From contig NC_089429.1 of NCBI RefSeq assembly GCF_026210795.1, forward strand, positions 5,518,001-5,582,000: a stretch of DNA of 64,000 nucleotides, read 5' to 3'. Position numbers and translations under genes: made by a program. Below are positions 37,015-38,118 of the stretch, in pieces; within the stretch, counting starts at the first letter, position 1, and each line of letters begins with the position of its first letter. The notes beneath the pieces were generated by a model. That model made no database searches, was not told the DNA's origin, and saw only the letters and a list, made by a program, of their open reading frames with translations. Source of the DNA: Rhizophagus irregularis. Taxonomy: Eukaryota.

Positions 37015-38118
37015 TTAATCCATTTTTTTTTTTATCTTTGTCTGATTTCCTGACCCTTTCGAACAATTGCTAGAAGGTGGGTCATTCATGATACCATAAT
37101 GTTGGACTGATTCATCTCGTCCTACTACTTGTCTGCAAGCTAATTTTCGCAAACGCTGGTGACGAGAATCATTCTTACCTCTATGGATCCTGGAAGCATG
37201 GTCTGCACCTATCTTCCTCAATTTATTCGAAGTAATTCCATGTTTAGCTAGAATAAGATTAATTGGATCAACATTAACTATACCACTTTTGTTTTTCCGT
37301 AAGAAGGTGAATTTTTCTGGTATTGCTTTCTGAATCCAGGCAAGAAACTCCTTTGCTCGTATTGGATCCTTTTCCATTGAGAGGAAAGGCCGAGGTTCTC
37401 CTACTCCTGTTTCTTCTTTAGTTTTAGAGTAGCCAGTACAATTCCAGGAATATTTAGGGTCATACCAAATTTCATCTGATGCTTCATATTTATCAATACG
37501 AAGAGTTGCCACATCTGCCGGTCGCATGCTTAACATTATCATTACATCAACCAGATCTTCCTTAGAAGGTGATAAGGAGAAATCACATTTCTCAAGTCTC
37601 TCCTGAACCGGTTCTAAGAGGAAGTGTTCAGGCCAGTCGACACCTTCATCTTCATCAAGTACAAGCCGTCGTGCCTGAATTTTATTCGCTTCTGTAGTAA
37701 TATGAGGAATTTTTGTCGCTTCTTTTTTGAGATGATTAGCTCCACGATCCTGTAACTTTTTTCGCAATAAAGTAAGCCGGGATCTTCCTGCGACTGGATT
37801 AGGTGCGGAACTACCCAAATCATATGAAATTTGTTTTATTTTCTCAGACTGATAATCATTTTCCACAATTTCTTGGGCAATTTTATCAACAGTATCCCTG
37901 CCTTCTTCACGCTTTCCAGTAGGCCGAATAGGAATGAGAACTTCTACTTGTTCCTTAGTAAGCCCTAATGCCCGAAAGCGCGTTTTGGCATTGGATCTTA
38001 CCTTGCAATCATCCTTTAAACTTTTGCTAATTTCCTCTGTGTATTGAGCTAGTTCGGATGATGGAGTTTCGAAGGTCCATTTATGGCGTTTCATGAAATC
38101 TGTAGCTACTTTTGCCAT
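37015..38118 (-). CDS. Tyrosine recombinase-superfamily protein, protelomerase/telomere-resolvase-like
   Basis: Intact 367 aa. Ordered motifs LSMR199PADV, TGYSK232TK, NKLR301KIGA, ACRQ330, VQHY341 parallel the R-K-(H/K)xxR-H-Y catalytic set. Confidence 0.7.
   Translation of the reverse strand: MAKVATDFMKRHKWTFETPSSELAQYTEEISKSLKDDCKVRSNAKTRFRALGLTKEQVEVLIPIRPTGKREEGRDTVDKIAQEIVENDYQSEKIKQISYDLGSSAPNPVAGRSRLTLLRKKLQDRGANHLKKEATKIPHITTEANKIQARRLVLDEDEGVDWPEHFLLEPVQERLEKCDFSLSPSKEDLVDVMIMLSMRPADVATLRIDKYEASDEIWYDPKYSWNCTGYSKTKEETGVGEPRPFLSMEKDPIRAKEFLAWIQKAIPEKFTFLRKNKSGIVNVDPINLILAKHGITSNKLRKIGADHASRIHRGKNDSRHQRLRKLACRQVVGRDESVQHYGIMNDPPSSNCSKGSGNQTKIKKKMD

Follow-up and report, generated by a model that had tools for sequence, protein, structure and literature searches.

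What would an enzyme resembling a protelomerase do in the nuclear genome of a fungus, and on which DNA would it act? Protelomerases have been characterised from bacteria and phages, and have been proposed for algal giant viruses. The gene considered here lies in a 64,000-nucleotide stretch of Rhizophagus irregularis contig NC_089429.1 (hereafter the window, i.e. the whole stretch that was analysed):

37015..38118, minus strand: protelomerase-fold enzyme (P0001), 367 aa, intact; putative catalytic residues R199, K232, R301, Q330 and Y341

The enzyme gene and its catalytic residues

The initial annotation had described this frame as intact and had placed in it R199 (LSMRPADV), K232 (TGYSKTK), R301 (NKLRKIGA), Q330 and Y341 (SVQHY). 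The 367 codons on the minus strand contained no stop and all five residues were located at these positions. Conservation of the two arginines, the lysine and the tyrosine, on which the recombinase reading had been made to depend, was observed in an alignment of 74 family members, R199, K232, R301 and Y341 being kept in 68, 73, 68 and 72 sequences, respectively.

The R/K/R/Y order and spacing of the P0001 family were protelomerase-like. In the alignment, the R-K/K-R/R-H/H-Y spacing was 33/69/29/11 for P0001 and 25/72/28/11 for ResT, and the residue list in the accessible part of PMC3558466 yields 31/80/28/11 for TelA. A further position, three residues before the second Arg, is Lys or Tyr in eight of nine aligned protelomerases (TelK K380, TelA Y363, ResT Y293); in the P0001 family the position is variable (S in 40, K in 21 and R in 7 of 74 sequences) and is N298 in P0001 itself, in a register assigned from sequence alignment alone. 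In the linker helix, T141, N145 and Q148 were near-invariant among the 74 sequences. The TelA refolding residues Y201 and R205 are described as poorly conserved across protelomerases in the accessible text of PMC3558466.

Fold and placement among tyrosine recombinases

A structure model was built from 55 sequences, with a mean pLDDT of 84.5 that fell to about 60 over residues 331-350, around Y341. When it was searched against the PDB with Foldseek, six TelA chains came first (E 2.6e-5 to 1.2e-4), followed by Cre (4.5e-4) and TelK (2.3e-3); in the viral structure library BFVD, the ResT/TelK protein of EhV-86 ranked first and was the sole match below E 0.001. Comparison with 48,161 chains by VIA-align gave Z scores of 14.7 for TelA (262 residues aligned, rmsd 4.7), 12.1 for TelK and 8.3 for ResT, and of 7.5, 7.2, 7.0 and 6.6 for the other tyrosine recombinases SroF, lambda Int, XerA and Cre, so that TelA exceeded every non-protelomerase by at least 7. 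Model residues 72-355 superposed on TelA 126-421, the N-terminal helical domain and the linker helix included. Independently of these structure searches, the feature neighbours in the ESM Atlas were PF16684 clusters at 0.96, with 164-166 of 256 features shared, slightly below the 170 that are typical of same-family matches. The suggestion, first made from motifs, that the protein is closer to protelomerases than to Cre/Xer, Crypton or Starship enzymes was thus supported, among others by the Foldseek order (TelA before Cre) and by VIA-align, where TelA, TelK and ResT outranked the other tyrosine recombinases.

Profile methods told a different story. Neither P0001 nor any of the 55 aligned members had a relevant Pfam match, the PF16684 (ResT-TelK_cat) profile remaining unmatched, and the link to PF16684 came from the language-model feature search only. 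Alignment with hhalign to TelN, to ResT and to a nine-sequence protelomerase alignment was not significant (probability 0.3%), its path nevertheless pairing R199, K232, R301 and position 330 with ResT R199, K224, R296 and H324. HMM cross-searches with protelomerases stayed below inclusion, a PDB sequence search with the family profile gave weak, unrelated matches only, and tblastn against phages gave no protelomerase link. Regarding the recombinases of known fungal mobile elements, DUF3504, DUF3435 and Crypton-type profiles were absent among the 25 listed of the 30 Pfam families matched by the 55 members at E <=0.5, and no Crypton-, Glomhopper- or Starship-type Pfam profile was matched by P0001. 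Placement among the protelomerases is therefore a prediction from structure, sequence alone failing to place P0001. That the gene encodes a real, conserved enzyme of protelomerase fold is, judging from the model and the alignment, almost certain.

Distribution of the family

A protein search retrieved 78 proteins, query included, and all matches with a named organism were from Glomeromycota, the nearest (86-90% identity) being from Rhizophagus clarus, R. diaphanus and R. irregularis. When 1.84 billion representatives were searched with a profile, 544 matches were obtained at E <=0.001, and an alignment of distant members used as query gave 348 matches among 7,993 scored candidates; names among the 120 matches listed for the latter query were again restricted to Glomeromycota. 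The genera named were Rhizophagus, Glomus, Funneliformis, Gigaspora, Dentiscutata, Cetraspora, Diversispora, Entrophospora, Paraglomus and Geosiphon. Distant members, 27-31% identical to P0001, were also observed on ENA and Logan contigs, the longest of those looked up measuring 22 kb (P0120, P0135, P0161, P0197, P0199, P0201, P0210, P0213 and P0222); most of these nine were missing the first ~70 residues, and they may extend the family beyond fungi. Scans that reach close relatives only found none in IMG/VR (queries: family alignment, P0088, integrase and a piece of the helicase) and none in GTDB genomes.

Gene content of the surrounding element

Judging from its neighbours, the gene belongs to an element that occurs in multiple copies in Glomeromycota and encodes an rve integrase, an A32 ATPase and a UL9-like helicase. 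The genes assigned to it in the window were the following:

1..1275, plus strand: rve (DDE) integrase, 3' part with C-terminal nuclease-like extension, broken; 80-87% identical to P0354
1350..2140, plus strand: A32-type packaging ATPase, frameshifted; PF04665 at E 4.6e-6, above cut-off
36467..36868, minus strand: aspartic-protease-like ORF adjoining the enzyme gene, open
38587..38895, plus strand: small Cys-rich (Zn-finger-like) ORF, open; the commonest neighbour in relatives
41708..45030, minus strand: primase-like domain joined to an SF2 helicase of the UL9/herpes origin-binding type, broken; PF02399 at E 2.2e-12

The 5' part of the integrase lies beyond the window edge, and the full-length relatives P0374 and P0384 match PF00665 at E 5.8e-9 and 2e-9. 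The extension, at 478-1275, resembles a treble-clef/DUF2726-like nuclease, with matches below cut-off in relatives. A relative of the helicase in locus L019 matches the HSV origin-binding protein (E 7.7e-9), and its N-terminal domain weakly matches the poxvirus D5 N-terminal domain (E 0.048); a relative of the protease-like ORF in locus L031 gives weak PF13975/PF13650 matches, below cut-off.

The enzyme gene had been called the only core gene of the element free of stops and frameshifts. This stands for the four large enzymes, the integrase containing one stop and a frameshift, the A32 ATPase a frameshift and the primase-helicase several stops and a frameshift; it does not stand for the element as a whole, the small ORFs at 36467-36868 and 38587-38895 being open as well. 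Since the integrase, the ATPase and the helicase have been lost, the window copy could be mobile only with help in trans.

Synteny was examined in 80 metagenomic loci, most of them 1-3 kb long, and 26 of these held at least one of the same neighbours: the Zn-finger-like ORF in 15, F-box/LRR genes in 10, the helicase in 8, the protease-like ORF in 5, and the ATPase and the integrase in one each. The gene order helicase, Zn finger, enzyme, protease-like ORF, cargo, ATPase, integrase recurs in loci L031 and L079 (enzyme ~32% identical to P0001); linkage of the integrase and ATPase comes from L079, which has the longest downstream stretch among the loci. The primase-helicase and enzyme genes are divergent and adjacent in L016 (1-1030) and L019 (1-2770), and in tandem order in the window.

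In the uninterrupted element, an F-box/LRR gene (24398-26660) and an F-box/protease-like gene (22071-22940) would lie directly downstream of the enzyme gene. F-box/LRR genes recur at 10 of the 80 related loci and are therefore likely to be stable cargo. Two divergently placed gene sets (15804-18371 and 19204-20683) carry Crinkler N-terminal domains (PF20147), followed in one of them by an NTPase-like domain; they may be cargo or a later insertion. No capsid candidate was recognised by Pfam in 34 window ORFs and 16 further ORFs, nor was a protein-primed DNA polymerase B found in the window or in the scanned L031/L079 ORFs, both searches reaching leftwards as far as the integrase.

Nested insertions and host-side genes

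The window copy is interrupted by later arrivals:

26657..36325: TIR-bounded nested insertion; 3-bp duplication TCT; splits the F-box/LRR cargo gene
28029..34082: inner TIR element, nested inside 26657-36325
39103..41494: hAT-like nested insertion, not native to the element; 8-bp duplication (CGCCAGAC); DUF659 below cut-off

The copy is thus inflated by two nested insertions (39103-41494 and 26657-36325) which carry their own duplications; after their subtraction it measures at least 34 kb, its left end lying beyond the window. The hAT-like insertion, missing from L002 and L005, has the TIR TAGAGCTCCGCACGGG, contains an 81-bp tandem array as well as a zf-BED/DUF659-like fragment, and interrupts a second Zn-finger-like ORF. 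The outer TIR insertion has 50-bp subterminal tandem repeats at 35600-36193; the ORFs of the inner one are presumably Plavaka-like, with no support from Pfam. In L079, a 29-bp hairpin (452-480) at the break of a truncated enzyme gene is possibly the end of a small inserted element. Outside the element, host-side genes at 48445-49287, 50463-51656 and 60806-61399 have a zf-BED/hAT-derived N-terminus fused to Sel1 repeats.

A perfect palindrome at the right end of the element

Beyond the helicase gene, the following features were delimited:

45951..46400: inferred terminal inverted repeat, minimum extent (possibly from 45267); present about two times in each genome
46188..46328: 4.4 copies of a subterminal 32-bp tandem repeat similar to the palindrome arm; candidate iterons for protein binding
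46339..46400: perfect 62-bp palindrome, read as the right terminus of the element; 31-bp arms, centre ATTAAT; predicted telomere-resolution site
46401..46405, plus strand: AATGC, inferred 5-bp target-site duplication; same bases outside the second palindrome copy in runs X7, X8 and X4

The palindrome, already named in the initial annotation, though neither as the end of the element nor with a flanking duplication, shows no mismatch along its 62 bp, and no other in the window comes close to it in length (next arm 15 bp). Of 30 block-shuffled windows, 29 had a longest arm of 7-13 bp and the remaining one an arm of 18 bp. A second perfect palindrome, 30 bp long and A/T-rich (58305-58334), lies in very AT-rich host DNA and is near the shuffle range.

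In contigs, the sequence of a second copy departs from the window exactly after 46400, and the palindrome is, on this sequence evidence, the terminus of the element. It is predicted to be an unfolded hairpin end, i.e. a telomere-resolution site, and is the likely target of the enzyme. Contig depth over 45951-46400 was 1.35-2.9 times that of the right flank in five of five runs, and this segment occurs only once in the window. In X4, X7 and X10, the summed contig depth went from many-copy over the helicase end to single-copy right of the palindrome.

A narrow contig comparison at the palindrome was carried out in four runs (X1, X4, X7 and X8). In X7 and X8, a contig joins the arm at 46339 to another flank, ending in ...CGCGAATGC, and in X4 the reverse complement of this alternative flank stands behind 46400; the alternative outer flank was thus present in three of the four runs, X1 having none among its listed loose ends. 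On the inward-reading strand, the outer flank of the second copy ends in AATGC, and the right flank in the window starts with AATGC. Such a five-base agreement would arise by chance about once in 1,000 cases according to a base-composition estimate, with the caveat that ATGC is common to the alternative flank and the inner flank of the element as well. The simplest reading is that the alternative flank adjoins the other end of the element and that AATGC is a 5-bp target duplication. Because the left end is beyond the window, the terminal inverted repeat and the target duplication are both deduced from contig ends and depths, the two ends being on separate contigs. Depths are in keeping with this reading: in X7 the inner depth was 421 against outer depths of 244 and ~248, and in X8 it was 96 against 68 and ~13, the second outer-flank depths (~248 and ~13) being table differences.

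Free hairpin DNA was considered as the source of the excess depth left of the palindrome and rejected, a second outer flank explaining it in X7 and X8; no fold-back joint at the palindrome was among the joints listed for the contigs. A contig join between 45863 and 46313 on opposite strands, found in X7 and X10, is probably another copy with rearranged subterminal repeats.

Diverged copies bear on the symmetry itself. In X1, X4 and X7 (3/4 runs), a family copy with 41 differences in 218 nt breaks off at 46368, on the axis of the palindrome; in X1 and X8 (2/4 runs), this axis is also the centre of a 62-nt record that has 10 differences. These break points imply that the symmetry of the palindrome was maintained while its sequence changed. 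One related record (17 differences, 4 gaps) crosses the axis to 46374 without mirroring and may represent out-of-register subterminal repeats or a palindrome-less copy. Locus L078, whose protein is 44% identical, starts from its first base with a 32-bp perfect palindrome, AGTGG...CCACT, the outer bases of which match AGCGG...CCGCT of the window; 59-bp repeats and then a 5'-truncated, frameshifted enzyme gene follow. It was the only one of 159 locus ends with a perfect terminal palindrome, and palindromic contig ends can be assembly artefacts. As for distance, the palindrome lies 8.2 kb from the enzyme gene, whereas phage targets are found within about 250 bp of theirs.

Proposed mechanism and alternatives

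We propose, with a probability of roughly 0.65, that the element is Polinton-like, that its free form is linear with hairpin ends, and that it is integrated by its DDE integrase and released by telomere resolution, the enzyme cutting the terminal palindromes. The gene would accordingly encode the hairpin-telomere resolvase (protelomerase) of an integrated element, with the 62-bp terminal palindrome as its likely target. A palindrome would be present at both element ends, within the terminal inverted repeat and the 5-bp duplication, and the free element would be a linear duplex with covalently closed hairpin ends. Replication could be performed by the primase-helicase with a host polymerase, starting from an internal or subterminal origin; copying would convert each hairpin into a palindromic junction, which the enzyme would cut with a short stagger and refold. 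For integration, a nick in one strand at 31 nt from each hairpin tip would be followed by joining to the target, catalysed by the DDE integrase, and fill-in would unfold each hairpin into a perfect 62-bp palindrome; such a path would leave perfect 62-bp terminal palindromes inside a short duplication, the arrangement observed here. The nuclease-like extension of the integrase is a candidate for nicking the hairpin before integration. Palindromes of this form are resolved by protelomerases (N15, PY54, phiKO2, HAP-1), whose hallmark is cleavage with a 6-bp stagger to give covalently closed hairpins, so the enzyme could both finish replication and perform release: the terminal palindromes would be ready-made substrates, and the same enzyme could free the integrated element from the chromosome.

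The best surviving alternative, although an unlikely one, is that a protelomerase-derived enzyme acts as an ordinary site-specific recombinase, which would excise or circularise the element via the terminal palindromes, or resolve replication dimers, without producing hairpins. Cre also resembles the model, the Lys/Tyr position typical of protelomerases is unconserved in the P0001 family, and tyrosine recombinases are frequent in Polinton-like viruses according to the accessible parts of PMC7805220 and bioRxiv 10.64898/2026.06.19.733378. The Z score gap between TelA and every non-protelomerase argues against this reading, as does the rve integrase already contained in the element. Recombination of the loxP type takes its direction from an asymmetric spacer, and a perfect palindrome offers none. 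Ordinary recombination would also leave the perfect 31-bp mirror termini unexplained.

Somewhat less probable again is that the palindrome and the 32-bp repeats form an origin for the UL9-like helicase, the enzyme acting elsewhere or as a topoisomerase-like swivel. The helicase gene is about 1.3 kb off, the palindrome has an AT-rich centre with arm-like repeats alongside, and herpes simplex oriS is itself a palindrome with an AT-rich centre. However, copies diverge exactly after 46400 with an apparent target duplication, whereas origins need not match an element boundary, and the first base of L078 is the outermost base of its palindrome. The two roles may be compatible, with the repeats as origin and the palindrome as telomere.

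The residue at position 330

The active-site His corresponds to H394 in TelA and H324 in ResT (accessible text of PMC3558466 and PMC11317167, respectively). The expectation that position 330 is normally His agrees with the family alignment, in which 66 of 74 sequences have His and 8 have Gln; in protelomerases this His stands 9-11 residues ahead of the Tyr. A tree was calculated for 85 of 100 pooled sequences (those having R329 followed by His or Gln; the other 15, truncated or divergent at this place, were dropped), and parsimony required four His-to-Gln changes, two of which fall in clades of 7 and 4 proteins that retain R/K/R/Y. Between the window gene and six Gln-bearing metagenomic relatives, dN/dS was 0.25-0.35 at dS 0.11-0.45; for the closest pairs among Gln-bearing relatives it was 0.53-1.28 at dS <=0.04. 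The Gln clade is thus under purifying selection. Because Gln arose four times and its clade is so constrained, the earlier suspicion that the Gln330 copy may be impaired is unsupported, Gln being fixed in two multi-member clades, and Gln330 is more readily seen as a tolerated substitution than as a lesion private to this copy.

A loss of catalysis in the Gln330 lineage, or its retention for some host or other non-catalytic function, with a frame open by chance or domestication, would agree with the replaced His, the three broken large neighbours and the high ratios of the closest pairs, but it is the least probable of the readings and quite improbable given the repeated changes in clades keeping R/K/R/Y, the low dN/dS at greater distances and the element context still surrounding the Gln-clade genes in L002, L005 and L006.

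Implications

If the telomere-resolution reading is true, this would be the first fungal protelomerase family, as far as our searches reach, spread through Glomeromycota nuclear genomes. We would go further only tentatively, at somewhat less than even odds, in proposing a new class of eukaryotic mobile element, a "hairpin-telomere transposon" or virus with a wide distribution among arbuscular mycorrhizal fungi, which would be linear and hairpin-ended, DDE-integrated and excised by telomere resolution. The exit of integrase-bearing Polinton-like elements from chromosomes is an open question, and the element offers a testable route consisting of one enzyme and one 62-bp substrate. Excision of this kind would leave hairpin-capped chromosome breaks to be repaired by the host, a new source of breaks. 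The element would also give a function to some of the unclassified repeats in these plant symbionts and provide a protelomerase suited to the eukaryotic nucleus.

Comparison with known systems

The predicted fold of P0001 is like that of the protelomerases TelA of Agrobacterium (4dwp, 4f43), TelK of phage phiKO2 (2v6e), TelN of phage N15 and ResT of Borrelia (8vs5), with which its family also shares the R-K-R-H-Y order and spacing. Their targets are long palindromes (N15 56 bp, PY54 42 bp, phiKO2 50 bp), as is the 62-bp candidate described here. Differences are considerable: identity with protelomerases is 8-15% with no profile match, the family is variable at the Lys/Tyr position and the window copy has Gln for His. 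Moreover, protelomerase sites are internal and beside the gene, whereas here palindromes would end an integrated element of a eukaryotic nuclear host.

The nearest precedent is provided by the telomere resolvases of the phaeovirus EVEc and of EhV-86/FirrV-1, with a resolvase and an inverted repeat in an integrated eukaryotic viral element. According to the accessible text of PMC13236599, EVEc of Ectocarpus is an endogenous giant virus that encodes a telomere resolvase and contains an inverted repeat, telRL-like, where reads fold back; a separate tyrosine recombinase excises and circularises it at attL/attR, and linearisation then occurs at one internal telRL-like site. In contrast to this giant virus, the fungal element measures tens of kb, has a DDE integrase and carries its palindromes at its termini.

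Crypton, Glomhopper (DUF3504; accessible text of PMC13465315) and Starship (DUF3435) have in common with the present element a tyrosine-recombinase-fold enzyme in a fungal mobile element. They differ from it in that 55 members of the P0001 family gave no such Pfam match and that the element encodes, besides its recombinase-fold enzyme, a DDE integrase and genes of viral type for replication and packaging.

Descriptions of related elements were sought in the literature. In their accessible parts, PMC7805220 and bioRxiv 10.64898/2026.06.19.733378 report a capsid-less Glomus intraradices Polinton and unassigned Polinton-related A32 ATPases from fragmented Glomus/Rhizophagus assemblies, and the word "hairpin" is absent from both; target duplications of 5-7 bp are given for Polinton-like viruses in the former. 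The element is undescribed in the accessible text of PMC5294986, PMC13465315, PMC13533422, PMC7017919, PMC2836005 and PMC11317167, the terms looked up in PMC10640383 (Rhizophagus giant viruses) were absent from it, and searches of the accessible literature for protelomerases together with Rhizophagus, Polintons or integrated transposons returned no paper.

With Polintons/Mavericks and Polinton-like viruses, the element shares an rve integrase and an A32 ATPase, and terminal inverted repeats and a 5-bp target duplication are inferred for it. Polinton termini read 5'-AG...CT-3', like those of the fungal element. Its UL9-type SF2 primase-helicase, its protelomerase and its perfect terminal palindromes set it apart from Polintons, whose protein-primed polymerase and capsid were not found in the part seen here. 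It is best classified as a variant Polinton-like element whose end structure is undescribed.
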